Virus record (IMG/VR): IMGVR_UViG_3300037311_000293
Strand: one strand, 5' to 3'
DNA from: a virus
DNA: 64,000 nt
Position 1 is the stretch's first letter. Each line of letters begins with the position of its first letter. The notes below the pieces were generated by a model. That model saw nothing but the letters and a program-made list of their open reading frames with translations. It did no database searches and was not told the origin of the DNA. Below are positions 36,201-60,614 of this stretch, piece by piece. Both the position numbers and the translations under genes were made by a program.

Positions 36201-36327
36201 GTACGGCCTCGATCACTTGGTTCGCAGGACCCACGATACAAGCCGGAAGGGTCGGAACCAGAGTCGTCGGGCTGACGGTCTGGAACTCCTGAATGACCTG
36301 GACGCTGGGCCTCTCGATGGTAGCCAT
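33238..36327 (-). CDS. contractile tail sheath protein with inserted beta domains
   Basis: N-terminal RPSVQVIQEF...CIVGP; C-terminal SITRALDF...IDITVGVLYPLNYIRITL. Confidence 0.88.
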   Translation of the reverse strand: MATIERPSVQVIQEFQTVSPTTLVPTLPACIVGPANQVIEAVQDDGSLNSDARVSLPARIPFAWVSSPFEYTGIGTDALEVAVNNGAARTVTFPTGPDLTATEVADAINTEAIPGLEAVVETSGTQQRVVIQTTATGENASLEIGSGTASDVLTAFGVTTGYRNTGATGYTNYTQLRLAGGDYPDPRGNIDDLVIDYDTVRVFLNDGAGNIREVLRTEAFLDGATSAVSVQDDGDGDNLSPYLNFSGGVFADAAARLVGNIDLSGTFGALNTTSAVFSMNGAAPVTVNFAGLASAADVVTAINTAFGATVASLGSGNVLVLTSTLTGVSSSFERTGGTATSGNLGLAVGAFADGKPSRARAQGGANLSLLTFAADVHGRVLRMSIDGDQFQQLVMPNTIASAANIVSAINGLWAGVASLNAANELVLRSPSTFGGRESSIRIDTTASDATLLTNLGLTGAGEPFENTAVIYGKAFSPQVGDEVWVNGLRIGTITEIPVTPTNRLRLSAEQLLSYTGSTWSIVAKGLDNNAASATRPASELRVDEESGTVLIKYELFRQTNGDATLAGPLSTYLAYTALRRDVSPLGTDFNLARYGNTTDLEAELGPLDTQNPLGLGMYFALLNAPGIEVTGCGVDTTSDTEPEGALAAYIRALEYLESKDVYAIAPLTHSNDVGQAAQIHVDELSKPENGLERIAILNPRRPTRKSDTLVASAPTANVSGAPTNVVATGIANVQSLLAALGLPGPTYTESDGVFLEFEGDTNKYLVESVSGALVTVNDGPLSASNDFFLDGGGSPVFTSAVVDRPVSIKIRGGALANRTDEATAYADIARGYLDRRVITTAPDTAKATIDGLETAVPGYYLSAALAGKMSAVPPQQPLTEESIAGFSGVIGATDRYSELQLKMMSGGGLWVLYQEAVGQPVKTRHQLTTDMSTIEKREASITRALDFTAKFLRVGLRNFIGRFNISTNVQDAISITLDGLAAFLVRQGVLSELRINAIRQSATAPDTLEIDITVGVLYPLNYIRITLVV

Positions 36328-36336
36328 GGTGTCTCC

Positions 36337-37158
36337 TTATCGCGTCTGAATCTTGACCGTCAGAGGCTCCGTAGATTGTGCCACGTCGGAGCCTTCCTGT
36401 GGAAGCTGGGCGGATCCATCGACGGCACCTTGCCGGTCGGCGTCGCTTTGCTCGGGCTGCATCACGGCAGTTCCCTGAAGAGGAACCAGGGGCTCCACCA
36501 CAGCAGGTTGCTCCTGAGTAGTGGCCGTGACCTCGATCGACTGAACGATCGGACGGTTGAGCGGTAGGGTGTGCATGCCGTGGTGGAGGAACGCGGGGAG
36601 CGACACCACAACCACACACCATTCGAAGTCAGTGCTGTCCCCCACCAACGATCCCGCAGGGGAAGGCGGTCCAATCATCGGACGAGCTCCGAGGTAGAGC
36701 AGGGAGGGCTCTTCCTTCACAATCTCTTCTCGGAACGCGAAGATCTGAGTTGCCGCAAACCACGCCAGATTCTCTGCCTCCACCGGAAGGCGGCTCAGCA
36801 CGTTGATCATGATGTTCGTCGGAATCATGTCCATCCGGGCCTTTGCTCCGGTAGACAGATCGACAAAAGCAAGATCTCCAATACCGACCCCAGAGAAGGC
36901 GGCCTGGCTGCGGGTGATGGTGATGGCGGGTCGCTTGCCGACAACGGAAGGGCGGATTGGTGTATCGGCAGACAGAAAGATCTCCGACTCCTTTTGCTCC
37001 GGTGAGCTCTCACTCTCCGCGGCCCAGCGGTACGTACCCTGGGGCAGAAGAGAGAACCGCCACTTCAGAAACGACAACACATGCCGCTGTACTTGGAACA
37101 GCGGGGAGTAGTTGCCGGTGAAGACGGATTCCGGAGTCGTAGGAGTCGAAGCGCTCAC
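36337..37158 (-). CDS. tail completion/terminator-like protein
   Basis: Immediately upstream of the sheath; RPAITITR pattern; mainly positional inference. Confidence 0.55.
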   Translation of the reverse strand: MSASTPTTPESVFTGNYSPLFQVQRHVLSFLKWRFSLLPQGTYRWAAESESSPEQKESEIFLSADTPIRPSVVGKRPAITITRSQAAFSGVGIGDLAFVDLSTGAKARMDMIPTNIMINVLSRLPVEAENLAWFAATQIFAFREEIVKEEPSLLYLGARPMIGPPSPAGSLVGDSTDFEWCVVVVSLPAFLHHGMHTLPLNRPIVQSIEVTATTQEQPAVVEPLVPLQGTAVMQPEQSDADRQGAVDGSAQLPQEGSDVAQSTEPLTVKIQTR

Positions 37159-37544
37159 GCCTTTTCTCTCCTGTTGGCCAGGGCCTCACGCGCCCGGCTC
37201 GAGGCATAGGCACCCACGGCACCGCCGACTGCGATACCGGCCGGAAGCGCCTTGAGCCAGCCCGGTCGCTCGCCAGTACGTGCGATGCGTTCACCGATGA
37301 TCTCGGCGAGCGTCTTTCCGATACCGTAGCCCAACCCACCGCCAAGCACGGCGATAGGAAGATCCTTGGCCGTTTGCTTCCACTTCGCCGACGACATCAC
37401 GGGGTACTCGGTGCCCTGCATCGCTGTCTTCGTCGAAATGCCAAAGGAGCCAGGACGCGGCACCGCCGGAACCGGCGGCTTCGGCGGCTTCATCAGTTTG
37501 GCTTGGGTGCGTTGAAGCAACCCGGGTTGAAGCATCGGCTTCAT
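37155..37544 (-). CDS. putative internal head protein with Gly-rich hydrophobic helices
   Basis: KTA motif; GGGLGYGIG and AVGGAVGAYA segments. Confidence 0.6.
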   Translation of the reverse strand: MKPMLQPGLLQRTQAKLMKPPKPPVPAVPRPGSFGISTKTAMQGTEYPVMSSAKWKQTAKDLPIAVLGGGLGYGIGKTLAEIIGERIARTGERPGWLKALPAGIAVGGAVGAYASSRAREALANRREKA

Positions 37545-37548
37545 GGCG

Positions 37549-37968
37549 TCACGTCAACGCCTTGTGCGCCGCCAGACCGGCGCCGCCGAGGGCAACACCA
37601 CCGGCGACCTGTCTCATGCGGGTGACGCCGGCTTTGCCGCCCCCGAGGGCTTTGGCGCCGGCAGAGAGGCCTTTGCGGTAGGTGTCGTTGACCCCGAGGG
37701 CCTTGGCGCCGCGGCCGACGCCGCCGAGCACGGCTTTGCCGACGGTACCGAAGAAGGCGTGCTTCTGGAGCTCGAGGGCGAACGCCTCTTGAGCCGCAGC
37801 GGCTTCATCAGCGCTGAGCTTCTTGAGCAACGAGGCCATCAGGCCAGGCTTCTTCGTAGTCATGCGAGTCACTCCTGGCGGGAGGGCGTCTCCCGCAGAA
37901 CGTACGCCCTTGGTCCAGGGATCTTTGCCCTTCATGTGGTCGGGCTGCGGTACTCGGTAGCTCATCAC
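37549..37968 (-). CDS. putative internal head protein
   Basis: KLSA and KHA motifs; C-terminal VAGGVALGGAGLAA. Confidence 0.6.
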   Translation of the reverse strand: MMSYRVPQPDHMKGKDPWTKGVRSAGDALPPGVTRMTTKKPGLMASLLKKLSADEAAAAQEAFALELQKHAFFGTVGKAVLGGVGRGAKALGVNDTYRKGLSAGAKALGGGKAGVTRMRQVAGGVALGGAGLAAHKALT

Positions 37969-38867
37969 TCCTCCGGGGCGTTACGGGGGTAGGTGGGGTA
38001 GTTGGCGAAGATGTCGGGGGTCTTCTCGTCGATGGCGGTGTTCAGATCTGTGGGGTTCGTGAACATCCGCGGGGGACTGGGTTGGATGTCCTTGAGCGCT
38101 TCATCGAGTCGAAGCGGCAAACGATACTCGATATCGGTATCTGTGATCTGCCGCATCACGAGCTCTTGCTTGATGGGCGCACGAAGCCGCTCAGACTGCG
38201 TGACCTGCGTGATGCGCCAGCGCTTGTTCTCGGCCTCGACCAGCAGATCCCCTGGAACGATGTTGGGGTAGAACGATGTCCGCCCAGACGTCATGACAGT
38301 CTGTTCGATCTGCTGTGCGTGGTTCTGCTGAGCCTTGGCCGGCGGGTCGATCTGCACCCAGATCTCGATGGGGTTGTGGTAGCCGCGAAGGAAGCCGGTG
38401 TCGTAGCAGCTCAGGCAGTTCGCTCGAGTCCGCTTGTGCGAAGTGGTGTCCCAGCAAGACGGACAACGAGGCCCAAACGTCCGCGCCTTGAACAACCAGC
38501 ACAGACGCCCAGTCGCCTGGGTGAACAAGACGAGCTCGTGTCGCCGGATGTAGTTGGCGATCAGGTCGGGCTCGGCTTGCCGTGTGACAGGGCCGTAGTC
38601 GTGGATCTCAGACGAGGCCTTGTGTGTGACACGCAGCTTGTACCAGATCTGACGAAACTTGTCGCCAGCAGGCATCCTGGAATCCACGAAGATGTAGCGG
38701 TCCTCGAACGTGCCAGTGATGGGATCGAACGGTCCTTCAGGAGACTCCGAGCGCAAAACCTGGAAAGTGTAGTCCAACGCGTCATCCGAGGAGTCAGTCT
38801 CCCAGGTGACTTCGTTGCGATCTACATCCAGGCTTCGCACCCGGAGATTCTGAATCCCGAGGATCAT
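37965..38867 (-). CDS. neck/head-closure-like protein with Zn-binding Cys cluster
   Basis: N-terminal FnIII-like segment; RCPSCWD...CLSCYDTGF..GY; PGDLLVE. Confidence 0.6.
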   Translation of the reverse strand: MILGIQNLRVRSLDVDRNEVTWETDSSDDALDYTFQVLRSESPEGPFDPITGTFEDRYIFVDSRMPAGDKFRQIWYKLRVTHKASSEIHDYGPVTRQAEPDLIANYIRRHELVLFTQATGRLCWLFKARTFGPRCPSCWDTTSHKRTRANCLSCYDTGFLRGYHNPIEIWVQIDPPAKAQQNHAQQIEQTVMTSGRTSFYPNIVPGDLLVEAENKRWRITQVTQSERLRAPIKQELVMRQITDTDIEYRLPLRLDEALKDIQPSPPRMFTNPTDLNTAIDEKTPDIFANYPTYPRNAPEE

Positions 38868-40210
38868 CGGCGGCTCGCCATCTTGTACTTCTTCAGGAAC
38901 TCGATGCTCTGCATGCTACCCGGAGGCAGCGGCGCCGCAGGAGCATGGCGCGTTGCGGTACCCGTACCATCGAACGGCGACTTCTTCGGAGCCGCAGAAC
39001 GGAAGACATCGGTGGGCGCCGGGGTCGCCTTCGACGCCTTTGCCGCGATGCCTTGGCGAACGGCACTGAGACCCGATGCCGTGGTCTCGCCCTTGATGGC
39101 AGAGATCGGAACCCGCTTGGCGCTGCTCGCGGCTGCGGCTCGGCGGGCAAGATCAGCAATGCTGGCCTTCTTGCTCCGCTCTTCCTTTTGCTTTGCTCGG
39201 ATACGGCGATCACGCGCCTTGATTGCTGCTCCGGTTGCGCCAAGGGCAATCGCCCCGCCGAGCACACTACCGGCGATGCCCCGTGCATCTAGACGCGGCG
39301 ACCGAACGCGGGACTCGCCCGCGTTCTTCTCCTCGATCTTGTCGAAAGCACCGGGACGCGGGACCGGAATACCGGGTAGCGCAGCCTTGGGCCAGGTTGG
39401 TGCCGCGGCCTCACCGTTGTTGACGTGCCCGGTGTACTCGACCTCGGCCTTCTTTTTCTTGCCGCGATCTCGGAGCTTCTTTGCTGCGACGGCGCCAAGG
39501 CCTGCGGCCGCACCGATACCGACACCAGCGAGGTAGGCACCAGATCTTCCCGGTTTGCTCTTGCCCTTGACCGAGGAGACCATCTTGTCGATGACCTCCT
39601 TGGACTTCCGGGTGCTCTCAGCGGGATCCTTGATGAGGTTGCGCGCGATGTGGCGCGTAGATGCGGCCGCCCCGGCTGCCATGCGCTTCTTCCTTTGCTC
39701 AGGAGTCAGCCCTTTCTTCATGGCGGCCACGAGATTCTTGTCGGCAAACCGACCAAGCCTCTCCTGACTGGCATTCGATCCGCCCACTACCCTACGGATC
39801 ATATCCTCGCTTATCGCGCGCTTCTCACCATCTTCGGGTTGCTGACTTCGGCTCTTGTGGAGCTCGAGCACCAGAAGGGACTTCTGAAGCCGGATCTGGT
39901 CCTGCTTGGTCCAGAGATCTTGATCCTTGGGCTCCGCAAGCCGGCGCTGGATACGTTCGGCTTCCACTGCGAGATCTTGTTCAGCCAGCGCAACGGCCTT
40001 GGCGTGCAGCGGGGTCCCCTCGAACTGGCGAAGCCACCCCACGGAGGGATCGCAGTACCCAGACGCCTCCATCACCATCGAGGCGATCTTGGTGGGGTCG
40101 TCTTCGCCAAGAAGGGCCTCGAGCTCGTCGAAGTTCAAGATACGAAGGTCGTCGGCGCTGAGCTTTTCCTGGCTCATCGCATCCATGAAGTCTTGAAGGC
40201 TCATGATCAC
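38864..40210 (-). CDS. putative internal head protein
   Basis: KLSA, KIAS, KRA, KKAS motifs; two Gly/Ala hydrophobic helices followed by basic runs. Confidence 0.65.
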   Translation of the reverse strand: MIMSLQDFMDAMSQEKLSADDLRILNFDELEALLGEDDPTKIASMVMEASGYCDPSVGWLRQFEGTPLHAKAVALAEQDLAVEAERIQRRLAEPKDQDLWTKQDQIRLQKSLLVLELHKSRSQQPEDGEKRAISEDMIRRVVGGSNASQERLGRFADKNLVAAMKKGLTPEQRKKRMAAGAAASTRHIARNLIKDPAESTRKSKEVIDKMVSSVKGKSKPGRSGAYLAGVGIGAAAGLGAVAAKKLRDRGKKKKAEVEYTGHVNNGEAAAPTWPKAALPGIPVPRPGAFDKIEEKNAGESRVRSPRLDARGIAGSVLGGAIALGATGAAIKARDRRIRAKQKEERSKKASIADLARRAAAASSAKRVPISAIKGETTASGLSAVRQGIAAKASKATPAPTDVFRSAAPKKSPFDGTGTATRHAPAAPLPPGSMQSIEFLKKYKMASRR

Positions 40211-41877
40211 TCCTTCTTGGCGATGCGCTCGAGCGCATCCGCGATTCGCTTCTGGTTCTTGTCACGCTTGTGCTGCTGGTAGGCCTTGGCCCCACCAATA
40301 GCCGCGGCCCCGACGATTGCGGCACGGCCTTTGTTGCTGCGGATCGCCGCTCGCATCTTCTCCGAGGCACCTTCGACGAGCCGGCCGCCGGCTTCGGCAC
40401 CGTATTCCGCGATACCGCGACCCATTCCGCGGCCAACTTCTGGGGCGTGTTCTGCGAGCGCCTTGCCGGCGGCGCCCCCAGCAGGCCCGGCCTGTGAGGC
40501 AGCACCACGTGCCGTAGCAGCACCAGCGGCCTCAAGGACTTGCGTGGCCTTGTCCTTGGCGCGGTCGAGGACGCTGGCCGACTTCGCCTGCTCGGCTTGC
40601 TGGGTCTGCTGTGCGGCTTCCTGTTGGGCGCGTTGGGCCTGCTCGGTTTCCTTCTTGGCCTTGGGACCGCCGGTCTGCGCTGCGGCGTTCTGTTCCTCGA
40701 CCGCAGCGGCCTCTTGTTCCTGGGCCTGTTGTTCCGGGGTCATGAGCGGCGTGGTGTCGACACCTTCTTCGGCGACTGGATCGGAGCTCACGGTGTCGGC
40801 AAGCATCTGCCGCATCTGATTGATCCTCATGCTCAGGCGCATCTTGGCGTCGGCCTCCGAAGCTGCTTGCGCCGTTGCCGAAGCCGCTTCCTGGGACGCC
40901 TGCTGGGCCTGCTGACCGAGAACCTGCGCTTGCTCCGCAGTTGCAGCGGCCTGCTGCTGCACGGCTTGGTTCTCGGCACCAAGACTTTCGATCTGCTGAC
41001 CCTGCTGCACCATCTGCTGTTGGGTCTGCTCGAGGTTCTGCTTCAGCGCTTGGTTCTCAGCAGTGGCCTGGGCGTGGCTGAGCATCAGATCTCGGGTGAG
41101 ATACTGCTCCACGGGTTCCGTACCGGCTTCGGGCACGACGACATCACCGGGTTGCTGTGTCGGGGCCTTGGGCGCCGCGAGCTTCCGCCGCGCCGCAGCG
41201 AGCTTGTCGGCCGACGACTTCTTGGTCGTCTTCTCCGGCATGTACTGCCACAGCTTGTCGAGGTGCTCCTGAGCATCGCTTTGGAACTGCTCGAGTGTGA
41301 ACTTCATCGGGTTGTCGCCCAGCATCGAATGCAGGGTCTTGAACAACACGATGGCCTGTTGCTCGCCGGCAATGAGGAAGTTCAAGGCGGCGATGGGATC
41401 TGCCGTGGGCTCTGGTGTCGGCGCAACGGGGATCGGAACACCACCGGGAATGAGAACGCCAAGGCGACGAAGGAAGTACTTCATCTCCTTGATCTCATCG
41501 CGGCCCTGGGCATCGAACAGCTCGGAGAGCTCGCCGCGCCCGAGACCGCGCATTACCTCGCCGTAGTAGGCGTAGGCACCGTGCTGGCGCATGGAGTTGC
41601 TGACGATCTGAGCAAGTTGCATCGCGACGTCTTCCGGAGACACTGCGAACTCGCCTTCGAGGTGACCCGTGGTATCGGGCTTCCCGGCTTGCGTGTGCGC
41701 CGCGGCTTCGTCGGGCGTCGGTTCCTGACCCGTGGCGACGCCTTCGGCGTGCTCGACCAGGTCGGGATCTGCCGCGAGCTTTCGAAGCGCGGTGAAGAAG
41801 AACGAGGCATCCGCGAGCTCGGGCTTGGCACCGAACTCGCTGCGCAGGCTGTCATCCAGCTCTTCGTAGTGGTTCAT
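40207..41877 (-). CDS. putative internal head protein with ferritin-like domain and Gln-rich coiled coil
   Basis: ELSELF...DE.KE...LRRL..L.PGG, LNFLIAGEQQAI, DAQEHL; three KLAA sites. Confidence 0.6.
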   Translation of the reverse strand: MNHYEELDDSLRSEFGAKPELADASFFFTALRKLAADPDLVEHAEGVATGQEPTPDEAAAHTQAGKPDTTGHLEGEFAVSPEDVAMQLAQIVSNSMRQHGAYAYYGEVMRGLGRGELSELFDAQGRDEIKEMKYFLRRLGVLIPGGVPIPVAPTPEPTADPIAALNFLIAGEQQAIVLFKTLHSMLGDNPMKFTLEQFQSDAQEHLDKLWQYMPEKTTKKSSADKLAAARRKLAAPKAPTQQPGDVVVPEAGTEPVEQYLTRDLMLSHAQATAENQALKQNLEQTQQQMVQQGQQIESLGAENQAVQQQAAATAEQAQVLGQQAQQASQEAASATAQAASEADAKMRLSMRINQMRQMLADTVSSDPVAEEGVDTTPLMTPEQQAQEQEAAAVEEQNAAAQTGGPKAKKETEQAQRAQQEAAQQTQQAEQAKSASVLDRAKDKATQVLEAAGAATARGAASQAGPAGGAAGKALAEHAPEVGRGMGRGIAEYGAEAGGRLVEGASEKMRAAIRSNKGRAAIVGAAAIGGAKAYQQHKRDKNQKRIADALERIAKKE

Positions 41878-41878
41878 G

Positions 41879-42334
41879 TCACACATCCAGGATGATGGCG
41901 TAGGTGTTGGTGTTCGATGCAGTGAAGCCGATGAGCTGCGCCGCTGTGACCGCTCCCGCAGAGGTGAACGCCCCAGAGATGAGAGCGTCGGCGCCCCCGG
42001 AACCGGAGATCGCAAAGCCAGCGCCACGCTCGAGGATGAGATGAACCATCACGATGGGACCGCCTCCATCCGGTTGCGCCGAATAGTCTGTTCCCCTGGA
42101 CTTGCGCAGAGAAGCCATCCCCGCGATGATCGCGTTGATCTCTGCGACGATCTGCCGCATCGGCAGAACAGCACCGGCGGCCCCAGAGAAGGTCACTGGC
42201 GTCGCCGGGGTCGTGAAGTCCAGCGTCAGACCGCCTACCGGCAAGCCCGTGCTGGGAAACGGGCCGAAGACACCGCGACCGTTCAGGCGATCCTCGATCT
42301 CTTCGATGTTCCCGGTGTAGATGCGGTGGGTCAT
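41879..42334 (-). CDS. small structural protein sharing a sheath-type repeat
   Basis: PVTFSG...IVAEIN resembles the sheath insertion repeats. Confidence 0.55.
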   Translation of the reverse strand: MTHRIYTGNIEEIEDRLNGRGVFGPFPSTGLPVGGLTLDFTTPATPVTFSGAAGAVLPMRQIVAEINAIIAGMASLRKSRGTDYSAQPDGGGPIVMVHLILERGAGFAISGSGGADALISGAFTSAGAVTAAQLIGFTASNTNTYAIILDV

Positions 42335-42342
42335 TGTGCCTC

Positions 42343-42849
42343 CTAGTAGAACCCGAGGGCCGTCAGCGCGGCGTAGTCCGAATGCACCCCAGAGGGTCCG
42401 GAATCCATGATTCCGTTGATGTTGATGGCTGTCTTGATCTGCCTCTTCTCTTGCTCGTACGCGGCTTGGAAGAGGCTGAGGATCGACTGGTACAGCGGGG
42501 CCTTGTCGTTGAGGTTGACGCTCAAGCCGCCGTCGGAGAACGGGAGATGGTTGCGGGCGTACAGCAACATGACGCTTTGCAGCAGGCCGATGACGGTCCC
42601 GCGCACCGCGAAGTACTGGAGGTTGTAGGACACCATGTCGTCGAGGGTGAACGACGTGAACGGCGGTGTGCCGTTGAAGTTGCTCAAGAAGTCCATGGTC
42701 GCCCAGGCAATCATGCGATCACTGCTTTCCTCGCCGCGGATCAGCAAGTTGAGCGGCGTGAAGTCACGCATGAAGAGCCGCACACTCTGGATGTGGGCGT
42801 CGAAGGTAATCTGCGACGGCGGCTGACCAAGACCTTGTAGCTGGGACAT
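42343..42849 (-). CDS. head-tail adaptor-like protein
   Basis: Position after the capsid genes; VRLFMRD...NGTPP pattern. Confidence 0.55.
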   Translation of the reverse strand: MSQLQGLGQPPSQITFDAHIQSVRLFMRDFTPLNLLIRGEESSDRMIAWATMDFLSNFNGTPPFTSFTLDDMVSYNLQYFAVRGTVIGLLQSVMLLYARNHLPFSDGGLSVNLNDKAPLYQSILSLFQAAYEQEKRQIKTAININGIMDSGPSGVHSDYAALTALGFY

Positions 42850-42866
42850 CGTTCACCCCCGACGCA

Positions 42867-43601
42867 TCAGAGCGCAGACAACAGCTCGATGATGCGGGCG
42901 TTCGACATCTTGTCGTTGGCCTCGACACCGAACTCGGCACAGAGCTGGAGGAGCTCCTTCTTCGTGCGCTTCTCCCAACCCTCGGGGAGCCGCTTCGCTT
43001 CGACAGGGGCCTCGGCGACTTCCGTCTCCGCTTCCACTGCCTCCGAGGACTCCACCGGCGTCTCTGCGGCTTCCACGGGCGCCACATCGGTGTCGGGGAC
43101 CCCCTCGGTCTCAGGCGGGCCCGCAGGAGGCTCTGCCGGCGGGGCCGGGGGTTCGGTGCGTAGACCCTCAAGCCAGGCGCCCGGCACGAAGCCGAGGCCC
43201 TCGGCGTCGACGACCAGAACACCGGCGGCGTGGGCGGTCTGTACCTCTTCCGTGGTGAGCTCGCCGGTCGACACCGGGTTCTCCGGAAGTACGATGGCCT
43301 CGACTTCGTCCGCCACCTGAAGCTCCTCTTCGGGTGCAGTGCGCCCGAGAAGACTGCGGAGCTCGTCGATGCTGACATCGGTGTCGGCGTTGTACTGGAC
43401 CAGAAGGGTACCGTTGGCGATGTGCGCCTCGATCTCCTTCTGATGCTTGGCGCAGAACGCCAGCGTGACCGGTACCCGAAGATTCGGACGAATCGTCAGC
43501 TCTCCGATCCGAAATGCGCGCCGCGAGAAACGATGCGCCCGCCGCATCATGCGGGTGTGGACGTTTCGGCCCCCGCCGACGAGATACAACTTGTCGCTCA
43601 T
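42867..43601 (-). CDS. hypothetical protein with acidic linker and C-terminal HeH/Rho-N-like domain
   Basis: WEKRTKKELLQLCAEFGVEANDKMSNARIIELL. Confidence 0.65.
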   Translation of the reverse strand: MSDKLYLVGGGRNVHTRMMRRAHRFSRRAFRIGELTIRPNLRVPVTLAFCAKHQKEIEAHIANGTLLVQYNADTDVSIDELRSLLGRTAPEEELQVADEVEAIVLPENPVSTGELTTEEVQTAHAAGVLVVDAEGLGFVPGAWLEGLRTEPPAPPAEPPAGPPETEGVPDTDVAPVEAAETPVESSEAVEAETEVAEAPVEAKRLPEGWEKRTKKELLQLCAEFGVEANDKMSNARIIELLSAL

Positions 43602-43615
43602 GACTGTCTCCTAGC

Positions 43616-43649
43616 AAAGAAGGGGCACCGGCAGTGCCGATGCCCCTCC
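43616..43649 (-). terminator. terminator after the major capsid gene
   Basis: AGGGGCA...TGCCCCT stem plus TTCTTT. Confidence 0.65.
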
Positions 43650-43674
43650 GGTCGCATCAGGGTTGGGGGCGTGA

Positions 43675-44778
43675 TCAGAAGCTCACGACCTGGGGGAAGA
43701 ACTGGCGATTGCCGGCGCGGTTGTTCTCGGCTCCGAGACTCTCCTCGCTGACGGGCGTGACGCGCGACAGGATCGCGTCGGCGTCGTTCGTGGTCGCATC
43801 GCCCGAGTAGAGCTCGAGCTTGCGGACGCTCGCGATGTTCACGATCGACATCCCGACGTCCTTCCAGGCCACGAACTTGATCATGTTGATGACCTTGTCG
43901 ATGTAGAACTTCACGTTGTTGAGAACGTAGAAGCGGCCGAGGAAGTCCGGGGAGGTGAAGCAGTAGACGTTGCCGGGACGGAGGATGTCCGTCTTGATCG
44001 TCTTCACGTACCGCTTGCCCACGAGCATGTTGTACTTGAAGCCGCTCACGGCGGTCTCGGACTGGAGCTTGTCGCCCTGGTCTTCGACGGTCCACTGAAG
44101 GATGTCGTCCCAGTCGACCGACGTGATCAGGATCATGTCGCTCTCGAGGCGGTTGCCGTCGAGGAGCTTGATGAGCCGGACGATGTCGGGGCGCTGGAGC
44201 GGGCGGACGATGGCGTCGTCGGTGCCGGCGACGCGGGCGAGCTCGCCCTTGACGACGCTGAACTCGACCGTGGTACCGACGCTCGACGCGTTCAGCGTGG
44301 TGACCGAGCCACCGTTGGCCTCGGCCTGGAGAGCCTGCACCGCGGCCTCGATGTGGATCATGAACTCACGATCCTGGACCTCGCCCAGATCCTTCACGGC
44401 GTTCTGCTCGATCACCTTCCCGATGGGGAAGTTGTAGGCGAGGAACTCCTGTTCCGGCTTCTGGAACATGTCCGACATCACGGTGATGAAGGGAACCTCC
44501 ACCTTCGTGCCGCGGATGAAGTTCGCGCGCGGCTCGCCACGGAACGTGACGACCATGGCGCGGCTCTTCGGCTCGAGGAACTCGATCTTCACGAGGCTGT
44601 CGTGGTTGGTCGAGACCTGGCACTGGCTGCGATCCACGTTCTCCGGAGGGAGAACCTGTTCCGCGAAGCTCGCCTCGCGGAGGCGGTCGCGGATGTAGCC
44701 GCCGAACCGAGCGGCGATCTTGGTCTTCGCCCCCGGGTCGGAGAGCTGGTTGAGAAGCATCTCCTTGCTGTTCGACAT
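43675..44778 (-). CDS. major capsid protein (HK97-like)
   Basis: About 367 aa, highest GC3, follows the scaffold/decoration genes, has its own terminator; YIRDRLRE..F...VLPP...KP..E...Y..PI...AVKDL...DREF pattern. Confidence 0.8.
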   Translation of the reverse strand: MSNSKEMLLNQLSDPGAKTKIAARFGGYIRDRLREASFAEQVLPPENVDRSQCQVSTNHDSLVKIEFLEPKSRAMVVTFRGEPRANFIRGTKVEVPFITVMSDMFQKPEQEFLAYNFPIGKVIEQNAVKDLGEVQDREFMIHIEAAVQALQAEANGGSVTTLNASSVGTTVEFSVVKGELARVAGTDDAIVRPLQRPDIVRLIKLLDGNRLESDMILITSVDWDDILQWTVEDQGDKLQSETAVSGFKYNMLVGKRYVKTIKTDILRPGNVYCFTSPDFLGRFYVLNNVKFYIDKVINMIKFVAWKDVGMSIVNIASVRKLELYSGDATTNDADAILSRVTPVSEESLGAENNRAGNRQFFPQVVSF

Positions 44779-44825
44779 CTTGACTCTCCTGGTTGCCTGT
44801 TGGTGATGGGGTCCGGCTTGGGGGC

Positions 44826-45302
44826 TCAGACCAGCGTCTGAAGGATGCGGAGACGCCCGCCGTTGTTCGCCGCCACCTTGGTGACGTAGCCGATGATGAG
44901 GCCACCCGCCGAGGCGACGAGGCCACTGCGGTTGACGCTGCCGCTGGCGGCGGTGTTGACGGTGCCCTGCTGGACTGCCGCACCGAGGGTCGTCAGACCC
45001 GTGGCGAAGACGATGGTGTCGGCCTCGAAGGCTCCGCCGCCCATGATGGCGGAGAGCTTGCGGCTGGCCTGCACGTTGGTGTCGCCGCGGTCCTCGATGG
45101 CGAAGAACGAGGGGTGCGCGGGGTTGGAGGCACGCGCCCACTTGTACGTGCTGTCCATGAAGACGAGCTCGCCATCGATCAGCGGCACCACCGCCGTGTT
45201 CGTGGGGTCGAGGAGACGGACATCCGCCACCTCCAGGGGCTTGCGCACGAGTCGGTCCAGGGTGGGCTGGACGACCTCGAACTTGCGATCGTAGCTGGCC
45301 AT
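44826..45302 (-). CDS. capsid decoration/cement-like protein
   Basis: 158-aa beta-rich, high-GC3 gene directly before the MCP. Confidence 0.55.
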   Translation of the reverse strand: MASYDRKFEVVQPTLDRLVRKPLEVADVRLLDPTNTAVVPLIDGELVFMDSTYKWARASNPAHPSFFAIEDRGDTNVQASRKLSAIMGGGAFEADTIVFATGLTTLGAAVQQGTVNTAASGSVNRSGLVASAGGLIIGYVTKVAANNGGRLRILQTLV

Positions 45303-45348
45303 TGATTCATTCCTCCGGTTGGATCCTCAAAACCAGGTCGTCCGGCCT

Positions 45349-45741
45349 TCAGTTGAAGGCCCCCTGGGTCGTCACGAAGTCTTCCAGCTCGTCGCTGGAC
45401 TGGCGCTCACCATGAGACGCACGCTTGGTGTTGGTGTTGTCGGCGTTGTCGAGGCTGCCGAGACGAGCACCGCCAGCAGCCATCTCGATGGCCTGGGCGA
45501 AGCTCGCGAGCTTCTCTTCGTCGAACTCACGAAGAGCAGCGACCTTCTCCTCGAAGTCCATCTCGGGCTCGAGTCCGCGCTGCTCCATGCGACGGGCGAG
45601 CTTCATCAGACGGAGCTCGTGCTCCGCCGCCGATGCGCGCTTCATCAAGCTCTGATTGCTGCTGGCGAGCTTGCGCATGTGCTGAGCCGCGGTCTGCATG
45701 ATCGCGGGAACCTCACTCGCCACCTTCTTCATGTTGGTCAT
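45349..45741 (-). CDS. scaffold-like head protein
   Basis: Helical; 7 of its 8 lysines sit in K-x-A motifs. Confidence 0.6.
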   Translation of the reverse strand: MTNMKKVASEVPAIMQTAAQHMRKLASSNQSLMKRASAAEHELRLMKLARRMEQRGLEPEMDFEEKVAALREFDEEKLASFAQAIEMAAGGARLGSLDNADNTNTKRASHGERQSSDELEDFVTTQGAFN

Positions 45742-45767
45742 GGGCTGTCTCCTCGTGAAATACCGAC

Positions 45768-46907
45768 TCAGCCGAGCAGCGTGGCGGGGTCGACCCCGAG
45801 CTTGGACTTGATCGACGTCAGAATCGACGCCGCCTTCTGGCGCTCTTCGACAGGCGCATCTTCGTCGTTGTAGACGTCGAAGGCGCGCTTGATGTAGGCG
45901 CGTGCGGCAGCGGACGTCTTCTCCTCGTCCTTGTCGTCCTTCTTGTCCTTCTTGGCCTCTGCCTTCTCGGTCTTCTCAGGCTTCGACTCCTCGTGCGAGG
46001 AAGCGCGCTTGCGAATCGCCGAGCTGAGCTTCTGGCCTTCGGTCGTGAGCGTGTGGGCGCCGACCGCCGGGTCCTTCTTCGGGGGCTCCGAGAAGTGCTT
46101 GGTGGTCTCTCGCGTCGTGGCGTCGCGGGCCTGAGAGCGCGTCATCGAGATCAGGCCGGCGTTGTCCGGGATGTGCGAGCTGGGCCCAGGCTCGGTGTCG
46201 AGCTTGAAGCTGTCGCTGTGCCCCGGCATCGAGGGCGGCGGGCTCGACGGATCCTGAGCCGCCTTGACCTGCTGCATGATGGCTTCGGCTTGATCGATCA
46301 GCCCGAGGCTCATCAGCGTCTCGGCCTGCGCCATCTTCGCCCGAAGAAGACGATTGGCCGCCGTCTTGTCCTTCGTCCAGCCCGCCGTCTTGCCGGGCTC
46401 GTTCTTCGGGGCACCGCTGTCGTCGCCGGGGGACGTGAACTCTTCCTTGTTCGTGTCCTGGCCGGCGGGATGGAGCTTGCCGCCGCTGAAGCGGTCCGTG
46501 ACCTTCGACGTCGCCTTGGGCGAGGCCGTGGCCGTGGTGATGAAGCCGGATTCCGACACCGCAGGACCCGGGGCATCGTGGACGGTGCCCTCGGCGATCT
46601 TGGTGACGATGCTGCTGCCGGCCTCGAGCGCTTCGGCGAGCTTGAAGGCGAAGTCGACGTCCGCCAGCGCGGATTCCTTCGTCTCTTCCTTCTCTTCCTT
46701 CTTCTCCTTGCGCTTCTCGCGGCTCTTCTCGTCGTCACCCTCGAACGGGGTGTCTTCGGAGGCGCGCTTGGTGATGGGCAGAAGGTCGCTGAGGAAGTCG
46801 CCGGGATCCCCGGCGGGCTCCGCGTCGCGGGCCGACGCCAACTTCAGGCCGCTCTCCGCCTTGGAGAGGGCGCTGCTGACGATATCGCTGAGGGTCAAAC
46901 CGGGCAT
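45768..46907 (-). CDS. scaffold/internal head protein
   Basis: Low-complexity charged sequence with many K-x-A/S motifs. Confidence 0.6.
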   Translation of the reverse strand: MPGLTLSDIVSSALSKAESGLKLASARDAEPAGDPGDFLSDLLPITKRASEDTPFEGDDEKSREKRKEKKEEKEETKESALADVDFAFKLAEALEAGSSIVTKIAEGTVHDAPGPAVSESGFITTATASPKATSKVTDRFSGGKLHPAGQDTNKEEFTSPGDDSGAPKNEPGKTAGWTKDKTAANRLLRAKMAQAETLMSLGLIDQAEAIMQQVKAAQDPSSPPPSMPGHSDSFKLDTEPGPSSHIPDNAGLISMTRSQARDATTRETTKHFSEPPKKDPAVGAHTLTTEGQKLSSAIRKRASSHEESKPEKTEKAEAKKDKKDDKDEEKTSAAARAYIKRAFDVYNDEDAPVEERQKAASILTSIKSKLGVDPATLLG

Positions 46908-46914
46908 GGGTTCC

Positions 46915-47133
46915 TCACGTAACTGGGGGTGGGGGAAGTGCTTTCTGGGAGGAGATCAGGTCGGGCCGGGTCTCAGCGGTCGGCGCAGCGGGCTGCGCGT
47001 ACTCCTGGCGGTCCTTGCCGACGTCACGCTGCTTCATCCGGCGACGTGCGTCGCCCATCCCAGCGGGACCCATGACCGTTTGGGCTTCCTTGAGGAAGCG
47101 CTCGATCAGGAGACTGGGATGGGCAGCACGCAT
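46915..47133 (-). CDS. small head-module protein
   Basis: Fills the gap exactly; KEA motif. Confidence 0.55.
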   Translation of the reverse strand: MRAAHPSLLIERFLKEAQTVMGPAGMGDARRRMKQRDVGKDRQEYAQPAAPTAETRPDLISSQKALPPPPVT

Positions 47134-47136
47134 CGA

Positions 47137-48204
47137 TCAACCCTCCAGGTAGCCGTTCTCCTGAAGGAGCTCCTCGGCGCGGGCGTACACCGCGGCGTAG
47201 TAGTCGTCGCCCGCGAACTCAGAGAACTCCGAGAACTCGGTCTGTTCGGCTGCGAGCTTGGTGGGCTCGACGATCCCGTTCTCGACGAGGATGTGGTTCG
47301 CGAACGCGACGGCATCTTGCTCGAAGGCCTCGTCGAACGACTGCTTCTTCCGCATCGCTGCCGCTCCGGCGCCCGCACCAGCGGTGGCCAGGGCCGCGCC
47401 ACCCAGCGCCGCGCGCCCCGTGCGCCGCGACTTCGCCGCATCCTCGAGGGCGTTACCCCCAGCAGCCATGCGCTTCTTGGCGCCTTCGGCTCCCCCACGC
47501 AGCTTGTAGCCGACGCGGGTGCTCACGGCGTGCTCCTTCTCCCGCACGGCACCCGCTGCGCCGCTTGCCGCGCTGCGTGCCTTGCTGGCGGCACCGCGGA
47601 CCTTGTCGGCCGCGCCGCTTGCCGCCCCACGGACCTTGCCGATCGCGCCACGAACGGCGTCCGTGGCGGCCGCCATGCGGGACGCTTCCTTCGTCGCTTC
47701 GTCCTCGCCGTCGCCGCCCTCGAGCTCGGCGAGCTTCTCGACGAAGCCCTCCGCCATCGCGCGACCGATCTCTCGGGCATCCGCGATCTTCTCCTCGGCG
47801 GCGATCTTCTGCTCGAAGTACGAGGGGTCGCTCATGTTCTGGGCGAGCTCCGCGAAGAGCTGGTGGTAGTCCTCACGGCTGAGCTCGTTGAGGTCGATGC
47901 CCTCGGCCTGGGCGATCTTGCCCAGCTCGACGGCCACATCGGCGTTGGTGATCTCGTTCGGGATCTGCGTCTCGTCGCTCATGGTCTGTTCCTTCTGGGG
48001 CTCCTGATGGGCGCTTGCGGTCTTCTCCGGAGGGAGCAACTCCGAAAGTAGACTCGCCACGTCTTCGTCGCTGAGGTCGTCGAGCTCGATGCCCTCTTGT
48101 TCAGCGATCTTCTGAAGGACGTGGCTCGCGTTCGCAAGATCGATGTCCAGGTCCTCGGAAGAGTCTTCCGTGTCCTGCTCGAAGATGTCGGTGACGCGTT
48201 CCAT
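47137..48204 (-). CDS. scaffold/internal head protein
   Basis: Two repeated acidic KIA..EGI.L..LS.ED units, 8 K-x-A motifs, Gly/Ala helix. Confidence 0.65.
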   Translation of the reverse strand: MERVTDIFEQDTEDSSEDLDIDLANASHVLQKIAEQEGIELDDLSDEDVASLLSELLPPEKTASAHQEPQKEQTMSDETQIPNEITNADVAVELGKIAQAEGIDLNELSREDYHQLFAELAQNMSDPSYFEQKIAAEEKIADAREIGRAMAEGFVEKLAELEGGDGEDEATKEASRMAAATDAVRGAIGKVRGAASGAADKVRGAASKARSAASGAAGAVREKEHAVSTRVGYKLRGGAEGAKKRMAAGGNALEDAAKSRRTGRAALGGAALATAGAGAGAAAMRKKQSFDEAFEQDAVAFANHILVENGIVEPTKLAAEQTEFSEFSEFAGDDYYAAVYARAEELLQENGYLEG

Positions 48205-48252
48205 GTTCTGTCCTTTGTGGGCGAACCTTCGTCGTTGGCTGCTCGGAGCTGC

Positions 48253-49965
48253 CTAGAAGGACTTCAGTGCACCCCGCGCCGCCGAAACGAGAGAGGTCGC
48301 AGCCTGACGAAGACCGCCGGCATTGTCCACAGCCATCGCTGCACGAAGAACCGCTCCGATCGTTGCCATCGAAGTGAAAGTCGGATTCTCGGCGACGAAC
48401 TGTGCCATGGCCCCTAGCTGCTCACCCTCTTCGTTCCTTCGACGAAGGTGCGATGAAACCAAATGTATCACGGGCGCTAGACCGAGGAGAAGCGCACTCA
48501 GGCCGATCCCTTTCAGGTCACGCGGAACCGAGAGCAGCGAAGCCGCCTTGGGCATCAGATTTTCAGCGTTCTCGAGTACGCTGATCCTATAGCCATTGTA
48601 CGCCGCCGCGATCTTCTCCAAACGGATGTAGTTGGGTTCCGAAGATCCGAGTTTGGGCTCGTCGGACGACAGCCGGGCATTCAGATACGGCGCATACGCC
48701 GAACGCTCCGGCACCAGCGGTACAAGGGCGCTTGCCAACTTGGCGTCGAACAACACGGGGTCGACGGCATAGCTGTCGTCGATGCCGCCTGTGGTATCGA
48801 ACACCGCATTCATCGAAGCCAGTGCTTGCTTCTCGGCAGCAGGAAGAACGATGGCCTGGAACTCCCGTGGAGTCGGGATGATGCCCAGCCCAGCAAGTAC
48901 GGTCAGCAGCGTGCGGGGCTCGGTACCTGCATCGACGATCGCGGACAGCGTCTCAGAAGCATCCGGAGCTGACTTCGCGTCGACCTCAACGGCCTGCGCG
49001 ATGCCATCTGGGATCTCCTTTTCCATCGACGACAGCTTCATCGACGACATCAAGGTATCGAGGATCTTGTCGATTCGACGTGTACCAGGAGCCGGTGCGG
49101 GGAGCTCGCTACCCGCCATGAACCACATGACGCGGGCGGTACGGTCGGCGCCGACCCAGACGAAGCTGATGTCAAAGAACCGCGGGAAGTCGTTGTAGAC
49201 GAACACCTTGCGGCCGTCGGGATAGATCTTCCCCGGCTCATTCCTCATGTGCTCGCAGTAGTCGACGCGCGTTACTGCGAGACCGCGGATCTTGGTGTGA
49301 AACCGATGGTAGGCCAGGATGGCAACACCGGGAGTGCGGTGTTTCTTGAGGTCGAAGAGCTTCCAAGCCTTCCGAATCGCATCCCAATCGGTGCAGATCG
49401 AGCACAAGTCGAAGGGCACTCGGCAACCCATCGAGACGTCGACGCGTTCACCCGCGGCGATTCGACTCAGGATGGATGTGTGGCCCTTCTTGGCGGCCTC
49501 TTCGTTGAACACGCGCTCGACGAGCTCGATGCGCTTCATCGTGGGGTTCAGCGCGACGTAGATGACGTCGCCGAAGCCGAGCTGCTGAGGATCAGTGTTC
49601 TTGTGATGGGCGTAGACCGTCGCGCCGTAGTACGTAGGGTAGCCGTAAGGCCAGTCCTTCCCCTGCATTTTGTCGGTCTCGTAATCCTGCCCAAAGGATT
49701 CTGGGGCGTTGAGGAGACCGTTGAAGTCGAGCGGCGCGTTGTACCCGTACCAGTCTCGGTTCGAGTTCGATCCGTAGAACTCGGAGTACCCCATCGCGTT
49801 TACGAGGGTGTAGGTGTACCGGGGATCAGGTTTCAACGAGTCGATGAAGCGCTGGACGGAGGGCACCAGGGGACTCGCCGTCTTCACCTGTTCACCAGGC
49901 GTGATGACGCGTACCAGGGGCTCTCCGTCAGGCTCACCTTGGAGATATGCGCGCTTGATCAGCAT
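48253..49965 (-). CDS. prohead (capsid maturation) protease
   Basis: VYAHH, DVSMGCRVPFDLCSIC, YCEHM, FFDISFV..ADRTA; start MLIKRAY. Confidence 0.75.
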   Translation of the reverse strand: MLIKRAYLQGEPDGEPLVRVITPGEQVKTASPLVPSVQRFIDSLKPDPRYTYTLVNAMGYSEFYGSNSNRDWYGYNAPLDFNGLLNAPESFGQDYETDKMQGKDWPYGYPTYYGATVYAHHKNTDPQQLGFGDVIYVALNPTMKRIELVERVFNEEAAKKGHTSILSRIAAGERVDVSMGCRVPFDLCSICTDWDAIRKAWKLFDLKKHRTPGVAILAYHRFHTKIRGLAVTRVDYCEHMRNEPGKIYPDGRKVFVYNDFPRFFDISFVWVGADRTARVMWFMAGSELPAPAPGTRRIDKILDTLMSSMKLSSMEKEIPDGIAQAVEVDAKSAPDASETLSAIVDAGTEPRTLLTVLAGLGIIPTPREFQAIVLPAAEKQALASMNAVFDTTGGIDDSYAVDPVLFDAKLASALVPLVPERSAYAPYLNARLSSDEPKLGSSEPNYIRLEKIAAAYNGYRISVLENAENLMPKAASLLSVPRDLKGIGLSALLLGLAPVIHLVSSHLRRRNEEGEQLGAMAQFVAENPTFTSMATIGAVLRAAMAVDNAGGLRQAATSLVSAARGALKSF

Positions 49966-50660
49966 CGCTTCCGGATCGCGGAGGACAGGCGCCGCGCCGC
50001 CGAGGTCTTGAAAGCACCCTGAGCCACGGCCTCGAGAAGTTGCTTCTGGTCCATCCCATACTGCTGGGCGGCGTGGCCGAGGTTCCGGGCCACCCGATCG
50101 GCGTACGCCGTGACCTTCTCCTGCGCCTGTCGCTCTTGTACGCCCTTGAGCTGGCCCTTCAGCGAGGCGATCTCGCCGTGCTCCTTGTCGACTTCGCGGT
50201 ACCGCGTGATGCCGCGGTCGACAAGACGCTCCACCGCGGCCCCAGGGCCGGGCCCGGCTTCGGAACGCGCGGCCGAGGCCATCTGGGAACGAATGCCGCT
50301 GAGATCCTTCACGGCGTCGAGGAGTGCGCGGCTCGATTGAACGGCGTCGAGCCCGCCGGACTCCACGATGGTGTCGACCCAAGCCCCAGCCACCATGGGG
50401 TCTTTCGCCATGGTGGGGTTGACGTTGTGGAGGCTGTTGTAGATCCGTCCCACCAGCACGGGATCACGGCCCTTGAGCTGTGGGTGGATGTTCAGCATCT
50501 CCTTGTACGCCACGGCCTTCCGCTTGGCTTCGCGCATGCGGCCGATCGCGCCGGCCGCAGCCGTCACACCGAGACCAGCACCCGCAGCGGCCATGGGGCC
50601 CCAGAATCCAGGATCTTTGATGAGGCTCTTGAAAACCCCGTGCTGAGAGTACTTCGGCAT
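49959..50660 (-). CDS. putative internal head protein
   Basis: N-terminal Gly/Ala hydrophobic helix; KTSA; start MPKYSQ. Confidence 0.6.
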   Translation of the reverse strand: MPKYSQHGVFKSLIKDPGFWGPMAAAGAGLGVTAAAGAIGRMREAKRKAVAYKEMLNIHPQLKGRDPVLVGRIYNSLHNVNPTMAKDPMVAGAWVDTIVESGGLDAVQSSRALLDAVKDLSGIRSQMASAARSEAGPGPGAAVERLVDRGITRYREVDKEHGEIASLKGQLKGVQERQAQEKVTAYADRVARNLGHAAQQYGMDQKQLLEAVAQGAFKTSAARRLSSAIRKRC

Positions 50661-50667
50661 GAACTCC

Positions 50668-50949
50668 TCACGTGTAGAGAAGGCGGTACTTCGCCTCGTC
50701 GTACTTCTGCTTGGCCTTCCGGCCGCCCAAGTAGGTACCACCAGCCAGCGCGGCGTACCCCGCCACACGACCGGCCTTCTCGTTGGTCCCGAGGCCGCGG
50801 GCCAGCCCGGCACCGGCCTCGCCGCTGCCCTTGGCCACCCGACGAAGGAAGGCGCCCGCGGCTTCTGCCTTTTCGGCCGCGGACGCCGTCTTCAAGAGAC
50901 CGATCGAAAGCGCGAGGGTCTTCGTCTTCATCGCTCTTCCTCCAGCCAC
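50668..50949 (-). CDS. small putative internal head protein
   Basis: KTAS; VAGYAALAGGTYLGG followed by a basic tail. Confidence 0.6.
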   Translation of the reverse strand: MAGGRAMKTKTLALSIGLLKTASAAEKAEAAGAFLRRVAKGSGEAGAGLARGLGTNEKAGRVAGYAALAGGTYLGGRKAKQKYDEAKYRLLYT

Positions 50950-54476: not shown

Positions 54477-54504
54477 CCCTGCATCAGTGATGCGGGTTTT
54501 TTTT
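54477..54504 (+). terminator. intrinsic terminator (possible attenuator)
   Basis: CCCTGCATCA/TGATGCGGG stem plus T8, located between the promoter motif and the next RBS. Confidence 0.7.
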
Positions 54505-54519
54505 CTGGAGGAGAGAACC

Positions 54520-60603: not shown

Positions 60604-60614
60604 GTTGATCACCT

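Follow-up and report, generated by a model that had tools for sequence, protein, structure and literature searches.

Basic glycine-zipper segments on head-module proteins of a large contractile-tailed phage

A stretch of 64,000 nucleotides from the IMG/VR virus record IMGVR_UViG_3300037311_000293 (the window) contains a block of head genes whose products carry short Gly/Ala-rich segments set between basic residues. The window corresponds to positions 49517-113516, read on the minus strand, of the complete 177,453-bp virus record, and by its gene content the uncultured phage is a large contractile-tailed myovirus and a distant relative of Salmonella phage Arash. The segments constitute a real module that is periodic, conserved and associated with head-module genes. 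The proteins are probably of a known kind, namely head-packaged and leader-tagged internal or ejection proteins; new here is the portable basic glycine-zipper module that they bear. An original prediction had quoted nine Gly/Ala-rich strings from seven genes between 37155 and 50949, and all nine are found in those seven minus-strand genes at the coordinates it gave. This interval does hold the seven carriers, but the feature reaches further, into the C-terminus of X718 (27221-29377), and a hydrophobic helix of D570 had not been listed.

Zipper-carrying proteins of the window

All genes and segments described in this section lie on the minus strand of the window. P129 (37155-37544) is a basic protein of 129 amino acids (aa; net charge +13) with two zippers, IAVLGGGLGYGIG at 37317-37355 and AGIAVGGAVGAYASS at 37197-37241. 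A leader-type site, K39-T-A, is N-terminal of both, and residues G70, G72 and G76 of the first zipper are invariant across 9 orthologues. The ESM Atlas gave a low-confidence model of P129 and no informative match. O139 (37549-37968; 139 aa, net +13) is likewise basic and has a C-terminal zipper, VAGGVALGGAGLAA, at 37567-37608; its leader-type site, LLKKLSADE, begins near residue 48. No BLAST orthologue of O139 was found among the relatives, in which syntenic small open reading frames (ORFs) with zippers exist. B93 (50668-50949; 93 aa, net +11) is another small basic protein, in which the site LLKTASAAE at residues 18-20 is followed by a zipper at 50722-50766, VAGYAALAGGTYLGG, and then by RKAKQK.

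The larger carriers are more varied in charge and domain content. M448 (38864-40210; 448 aa) is very basic (net +29) and has zippers at 39482-39544 and 39221-39280 and the N-terminal leader SLQDFMDAMSQEKLSA. L559 (40207-41886), the likely product of a 606-aa ORF, combines a ferritin/bacterioferritin-like domain with a C-terminal zipper. Its site RKLAADP lies at residue 36, and the ferritin-like domain (residues ~90-212, nucleotides ~41251-41619) is followed by a Gln-rich coiled region, a short zipper at 40288-40323 and then KAYQQHKRDKNQKR. Relatives of L559 exceed the Pfam Ferritin cutoff, reaching up to 52 bits, and its profile matches bacterioferritin 4am2 (E=4.7e-5); L559 could be a packaged Dps- or ferritin-like cargo. 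E355 (47137-48204; 355 aa, net -34) has an internal zipper, AALGGAALATAGAGAGAAAM, at 47353-47412, flanked by RRTGR and RKK, and three strict K-[LIT]-A sites; its orthologues retain the zipper. Unlike the other carriers, L559 and E355 are acidic overall.

C233 (49959-50660; net +13) resembles Arash gp221. Its true start is MPKYSQ, preceded by a GAGGAG ribosome site, and an N-terminal zipper at 50541-50594 leads through a basic linker into a conserved all-helical domain. In an AlphaFold2 (AF2) model built from a 35-sequence alignment, the zipper forms the N-terminal part of a long helix with a predicted local distance difference test score (pLDDT) of 50-67. The helix runs into a confident core (pLDDT >90), and the whole model scores 75.6. 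The fold had no PDB match, a PDB profile search returned nothing significant, and the sole match in BFVD was an uncharacterised protein of an uncultured phage.

Two further proteins extend the set. X718 (27221-29377; 718 aa, net +33) has an InPase domain (PF18823, E=2e-37), a DUF5661 domain, one strict K-I-A site and a C-terminal zipper at 27314-27358, and from these domains it is a polyvalent-type InPase protein. With X718, the carriers whose zipper lies within ~35 residues of the C-terminus number five, the others being B93, O139, L559 and P129. D570 (48253-49965; 570 aa), absent from the original prediction, is a conserved head-module protein similar to Arash gp222, with invariant H120, H121 and S178. 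Its C-terminal hydrophobic helix (48454-48510; mean Kyte-Doolittle hydropathy, KD, 1.91) is followed by RRR. Relatives of D570 reach 1,100-1,340 aa in some loci (L010, L043).

Periodicity and conservation of the segments

Enrichment was measured with a strict pattern, which accepts uncharged stretches of 12 or more residues that are at least 45% Gly+Ala and include 3 or more Gly. In the head module, with its ~4.9k residues, 8 segments fit, and 9 when C233, which was merged in the crude gene call, is counted. Within-protein shuffles that preserve composition (n=300) averaged 0.76 segments and never exceeded 4. In the rest of the genome (47k residues), 15 segments were found against 6.9 expected. 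The count in the head module far exceeds that of the shuffles, and the clustering is therefore real and no side effect of G+C content.

A larger set of 268 distinct segments was collected from the head-module ORFs of 80 related IMG/VR loci with capsid identities of 57-86%. These segments consist of 34% Gly, 31% Ala and 13% Leu. Compared with shuffles within each segment, Gly-Gly spacings of i+4 and i+8 are in excess (z=13.6 and z=7.1, respectively), and those of i+1, i+3 and i+9 to i+11 are depleted. GxxxG occurs in 87% of the segments and GxxxGxxxG in 47%. A glycine zipper is defined as Gly or another small residue at i, i+4 and i+8 of a helix (Kim et al. 2005, as cited in PMC10240207). The segments are thus helical glycine zippers by the structural definition, and the i+4 and i+8 periodicity sets them apart from featureless low-complexity sequence. 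The prediction of glycine-zipper helices is borne out by this spacing together with the Pfam matches of the relatives described below.

The basic character of the flanks is equally clear. The six residues on each side of the 268 segments contain 14% Lys, 10% Arg and 5% His versus 8% Asp+Glu. The segments had been described as followed by basic runs, and basic residues do follow them, but the preceding sequence is just as basic: over the 268 segments, the 8 residues on the N-terminal side have a mean net charge of +1.07 and the 8 on the C-terminal side one of +1.19. Arg stands directly before five of the nine window segments, in four cases as G-R. Segment length ranges from 12 to 27 residues and copy number from 1 to 8 per protein, and the position may be N-terminal, internal or C-terminal. 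Many pairs in multi-segment relatives are separated by 3-13 residues, as in zipper hairpins.

The proteins that carry the module evolve fast. At a BLAST threshold of 1e-5, orthologues of B93, E355, M448, O139 and P129 were found in 0-9 of the 80 loci; orthologues of their neighbours J168, H158 and N300 were found in 25-78. Synteny nevertheless places zipper ORFs at matching positions in diverged relatives, also where BLAST no longer detects similarity, and a single protein there has from 1 to 7-8 segments. Across relatives the segments are conserved in composition and not in residue identity, and they persist in relatives of 53-56% G+C, Arash among these. In Arash itself, the C233 homologue gp221 keeps its segment, three occur in gp224, and those of gp231 and gp220 are C-terminal. 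The module is shuffled between genes, as three cases indicate: B93, a separate gene in the window and in L007, is fused to the A306 orthologue in L011 (3422-4483); gp220 has a zipper-like end; and the P129 orthologue of L009 has an extra C-terminal zipper like the end of O139.

The C233 family shows how far the arrangement extends. Among 1.84 billion proteins, its profile found 1,924 representative clusters at E<=1e-3. In 108 of the 110 top representatives with the conserved downstream motif, an uncharged Ala/Gly-rich run (mean 18.6 residues) is kept just upstream, with a linker of net charge +2.4 after it. Judged from these searches, the module is conserved across a very large phage group.

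Profile searches gave some matches to known zipper families. Among 43 zipper proteins of the relatives, 7 match Gly-zipper_YMGG (PF13441; best E=6e-8), 6 match the glycine zipper 2TM domain (PF05433; best E=9e-5) and 5 match Gly-zipper_Omp (PF13488; best E=4e-5); one listed score, 23.9 bits, lies just under the cutoff of 25, and such matches may reflect composition alone. The paired segments of relatives, 3-13 residues apart, form hairpins like the 2TM domain. The window's own proteins fall below every threshold. One relative matches the C-terminal glycine-zipper region of DUF883 (E=6.5e-4; 19.7 bits versus a cutoff of 27). PHROGs gave only scattered weak matches for the 43 proteins, two of them to tape-measure families, and the zipper proteins of the window belong to no PHROG or Pfam family. 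The Pfam glycine-zipper families comprise mainly bacterial outer-membrane lipoproteins.

The head module and its leader motifs

The zipper genes form a single co-directional block on the minus strand of the window, bounded by the tail sheath gene and by the head genes upstream. In the direction of transcription, the block comprises A306, B93, C233, D570, E355, a 72-aa ORF, F379, G130, H158 and the major capsid protein, followed by I244, J168, K151, L559, M448, N300, O139, P129, Q273 and the tail sheath. The ORFs resemble genuine genes, because G+C at third codon positions is far above that at second positions and because syntenic counterparts are kept in relatives.

A motif, [LIVMFT]-x-K-[LIT]-[AS]-[SAEQ], occurs in 8 of the 16 module ORFs versus 3 of 184 ORFs elsewhere (p=3e-8); among the three outside the module are the InPase protein and a protein of 712 aa encoded close to the terminase. 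A K-[LIT]-[AS]-type site lies N-terminal of the zipper in B93, O139, M448, L559, P129 and E355, and further sites stand just after the zippers of E355 and M448. Loose K-x-[AS] counts, by comparison, showed no enrichment in 5 of the 7 zipper proteins. In relatives, several head ORFs per genome share an N-terminal leader, (A/G)FFDELEK[IVL][AGS], at residues ~10-20 (L022, L043, L045, L056 and others), and up to six ORFs of locus L022 have such a leader. A leader of the FFDELEK[IVL][AGS] type is 3.2-fold more frequent on zipper ORFs (21/168 versus 35/819, p=1.5e-4). It resembles a capsid-targeting leader with a protease site, and K-[LIT]-[AS] is probably a maturation-protease or targeting site. 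Arash gp223 and gp225 have a related repeat, (D/E)LEKAAAV.

The idea that K-x-A processing frees a set of peptides was not supported. The sites are mainly N-terminal of the zippers, and the loose motif is not enriched in most of the proteins. Cleavage at these sites would thus remove leaders and free no small peptides, and the zippers would remain part of mature proteins some 75-430 residues long.

The carriers are probably head-packaged, to judge from their genes. That they are internal head proteins, as originally predicted, is indirectly supported by their position in the head module, the K-[LIT]-[AS] motif, the FFDELEK-type leader, detection of Arash counterparts in virions and the presence of a carrier with an InPase domain. 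In Arash, gp220-gp225 and gp231 were detected in virions by mass spectrometry, as were subunits of the phage RNA polymerase, on a list of 116 of the 252 proteins that includes metabolic enzymes (PMC10585845). A test of the zipper carriers against this virion proteome was dropped, as so inclusive a list does not discriminate. The InPase domain of the X718 type is restricted to polyvalent proteins of phages, for which packaging in the virion and injection have been proposed (PMC5512222). In X718 the zipper module is joined to this domain type, which is in keeping with the carriers being head cargo.

The T4 internal proteins (IPI-III, Alt) possess a capsid-targeting sequence that is cut by the prohead protease, and the proteins described here are like them in being small, mostly basic, encoded among head genes and provided with a shared short N-terminal leader at a likely protease site. 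They differ in the leader sequence, which is K-[LIT]-[AS] or FFDELEK[IVL][AGS] here. The T4 internal proteins are not known to have a glycine-zipper module.

D570 may be the maturation protease, a candidate suggested by its conserved residues. It had no Pfam, PHROG or PDB-profile match, and Foldseek searches with its AF2 model (pLDDT 57) found no PDB match.

Other genes define the setting. The major capsid protein (43675-44778, minus; phrog_2522) has K20-I-A near its N-terminus, and its sole match among 50,697 phage records is the capsid protein of Arash, at 24% identity. Arash is a 181-kb myovirus without close cultured relatives (PMC10585845). The tail sheath gene (33238-36327, minus; phrog_2839, E=2.6e-17) shows that the phage is contractile-tailed. 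F379 is charged and scaffold-like. I244 (42867-43601, minus) directly follows the capsid gene, and its residues 185-243 match PHROG families annotated as endonuclease VII and Arc-like repressor; its C-terminal domain is probably a small DNA-binding domain, on the basis of these matches. Between the genes for a type II topoisomerase (GyrB-like) and the large terminase (55207-57114) sits a 217-aa ORF (54487-55140, plus), with a weakly apolipoprotein-like N-terminal part and a clearly hydrophobic, Gly-rich C-terminal helix, VGLAVGGVAVVGGLGYLGY. The 712-aa protein near the terminase gene (58579-60717, minus) has four strict K-[LIT]-A sites and no PHROG, Pfam or phage-collection match; it is a candidate for the portal or for some other head protein that is processed. 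Beyond the window, at 156557-160105 of the genome, a 1,182-aa protein has two long zippers near its N-terminus, of 22 and 25 uncharged residues. It had no PHROG match and may be the tape measure.

Possible roles of the zippers

The original prediction took the segments to be membrane-active and suggested that they might form a DNA conduit or an early membrane compartment or depolarise the host; the idea of membrane activity has real precedents in the ejection proteins of T7 and P22 and in the effectors Tde1, Tse4 and Ssp6. Applied to T7, the same pattern finds matches in gp7.3, gp14, gp16 and the holin, and the tail fibre gp17 gives a weak run of low Gly/Ala content. The gp16 matches, 387-410 and 1136-1155, fall inside the published regions of transmembrane helices (TMH) I and II. 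In P22, a two-zipper hairpin is found at the C-terminus of gp7, and weaker runs occur in the coat protein and gp10. The holin aside, the Gly/Ala-rich matches of T7 and P22 are all in known internal or ejected proteins. The TMH I/II regions of gp16 are folded and soluble in the virion and have been proposed to refold into the inner membrane (PMC8954989). The segments of T7 gp14, gp16 and gp7.3 and of P22 gp7 are like those of the window in being marginally hydrophobic, Gly/Ala-rich helices near positive charge. The podovirus ejection proteins (PMC8954989) are also similar in being packaged in the head and soluble before ejection, properties that are predicted here for the carriers. They differ in that the present phage is contractile-tailed, has at least 8-9 different carriers rather than three, and has a shuffled module in 1-8 copies. 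Homology of the carriers to gp14, gp15 or gp16 was not found, as there was no PHROG, Pfam or PDB-profile match for them and no fold match for C233.

The effector Tde1 from the T6SS (type VI secretion system) depends on a GxxxG zipper for its passage through the prey's cytoplasmic membrane, and its zipper region resembles prophage tape-measure proteins (PMC10240207). Tse4 and Ssp6 are ion-selective pore formers delivered by the T6SS (PMC6889166). Tde1 and Tse4/Ssp6 share with the phage proteins repeated GxxxG in helices of soluble proteins and a contractile injection machine. Tde1 is similar in a further respect: its zipper acts in cis to carry an enzyme domain across the membrane, and the zippers here are attached to ferritin-like and InPase domains. 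These effectors are bacterial toxins and not virion proteins.

Our favoured explanation, held tentatively and with somewhat less than even confidence, is that the zippers are post-ejection membrane-insertion or translocation modules. The enrichment, periodicity, basic flanks and conservation of the segments, the Pfam matches of relatives, the probable head-cargo status of the carriers and the parallels with T7, P22 and Tde1 speak for it. In this reading the segments, short GxxxG or GxxxGxxxG alpha-helices between basic residues, are a portable module, of which each fast-evolving, head-loaded protein bears one or several copies. The carriers would be made in soluble form and then targeted to the prohead through their leaders, which would be trimmed so that the zipper stays in the mature protein. 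After ejection through the contractile tail, the zippers would associate and insert in the host cytoplasmic membrane, where their flanking positive charges would interact with anionic lipid and the membrane potential. The outcome would be either a permeabilised membrane or help for DNA and other cargo in crossing it. The module is not hydrophobic enough to enter the membrane constitutively in the cell that makes the proteins, and the carriers could for that reason stay soluble and be packaged. We infer packaging, cleavage, ejection and membrane action of the carriers from their sequences and gene positions.

The physical properties of the segments were compared with a classical test for a transmembrane helix, which asks for ~19 or more uncharged residues with a mean KD of at least 1.6, and with the positive-inside charge asymmetry. 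Of the nine quoted segments, only the two zippers of M448 (KD 1.66 and 1.72) exceed 1.6, as does the C-terminal helix of D570 (1.91). The marginal hydrophobicity of the segments (KD19 1.1-1.7) fits proteins that are first soluble and later inserted into a membrane. Several observations weigh against the membrane-insertion reading. The other seven quoted segments are under the KD threshold (1.09-1.31 or lower), with uncharged runs of 12-20 residues. Most uncharged runs of the window segments have 12-15 residues, too short for a classical membrane span, and additive Hessa free energies range from +2.5 to +8 kcal/mol. Positive-inside asymmetry was not seen: both flanks are basic, and charge does not alternate between the loops of multi-segment relatives. 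With this symmetry, the segments are not conventional membrane-protein helices. Aromatic residues are not enriched in the flanks, and none of the window proteins matched the Pfam glycine-zipper families at E<=0.1. The inclusiveness of the Arash virion list makes detection there weak evidence of packaging, and profile and fold searches of D570 identified no prohead protease in the module. Myoviruses already have an alternative channel candidate in the tape-measure protein, and the 1,182-aa protein, a possible tape measure, carries two longer zippers.

Some of these properties would suit a role inside the capsid, in which zippers pack the internal proteins into a prohead core or an inner-body-like assembly and basic flanks neutralise the packaged DNA, with no part played by a membrane. 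Many carriers are strongly basic (B93, C233, O139, P129, M448 and X718, from +11 to +33), basic residues on both sides suit DNA contact better than membrane topology, and the segments are often short of a bilayer span. The invariant glycines in the first zipper of P129 suggest a specific packing interface, and the ferritin/Dps-like fold of L559 is known for DNA-associated shells. Conservation by composition and not by residue identity is nevertheless unlike specific protein interfaces, E355 and L559 are acidic overall, and the similar segments of T7 gp16 and P22 gp7 lie in regions linked to membrane insertion; we regard a purely structural role as somewhat unlikely. Less probable again is that the zippers anchor head-assembly or other late proteins to the membrane of the producing cell in the manner of the ElaB/YqjD (DUF883) tail anchors. 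Such anchors would account for the five carriers with a near-C-terminal segment, for the DUF883 match of one relative and for the truly hydrophobic C-terminal helix of D570 with its RRR. They fit poorly with segments that mostly fall below insertion thresholds, that are also N-terminal and internal and reach 7-8 copies, and that stand on proteins with head-type leader motifs whose Arash orthologues were found in virions.

The zipper might itself be a targeting label for the inner capsid surface, the scaffold or the portal, in the style of encapsulins or T4. Unrelated cargo types (ferritin-like, InPase and others) do share the module, and ferritin-like proteins with Gly-rich C-terminal peptides are classic encapsulin cargo. 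An encapsulin-like cargo-loading peptide would be one short conserved peptide at a fixed terminus, and this candidate was rejected because the position and copy number of the zipper vary. The length of the segments varies too, they have no conserved sequence, and the separate conserved N-terminal leader is a better candidate for a label, which makes the zipper very unlikely to be one. The least credible alternative is that the segments are functionless low-complexity linkers produced by G+C-rich codon bias. The genome has ~60% G+C and the module proteins 13% Ala, but the shuffles produced less than one segment on average against 8-10 observed, Gly periodicity at i+4 and i+8 is strong, segments are kept in relatives of lower G+C, Arash included, and nearly all checked members of the C233 family retain theirs. 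The periodicity and conservation tests largely exclude such linkers.

A bolder form of the membrane-insertion reading, which we consider unlikely, treats the basic glycine zipper as a portable tag that acts in cis for membrane crossing and is borne by any head-loaded protein in a very large clade of uncultured large myoviruses with a virion RNA polymerase. After delivery to the periplasm via the contractile tail, the module would pass its protein, and perhaps DNA and the polymerase, through the cytoplasmic membrane. Ferritin-like, pyrophosphatase-like and other cargo would then all carry the same module for this reason. If true, the tag would play in phages the part that the zipper of Tde1 plays in type VI secretion.

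The passage of proteins and DNA ejected by tailed phages through the cytoplasmic membrane is poorly understood, especially in the case of myoviruses delivering large proteins, a virion RNA polymerase for instance. Full-text literature searches turned up no paper connecting glycine zippers to internal or ejection proteins of phages. The present analysis describes a simple, recognisable sequence module on diverse head-module proteins, alike in character to the membrane-inserting regions of the T7 and P22 ejection proteins and to the zipper of Tde1. The idea can be tested at the bench, because the cultured relative Salmonella phage Arash has the module-bearing orthologues gp221, gp224 and gp231. 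In metagenomic phages, the zipper module could mark head-packaged cargo for prediction.

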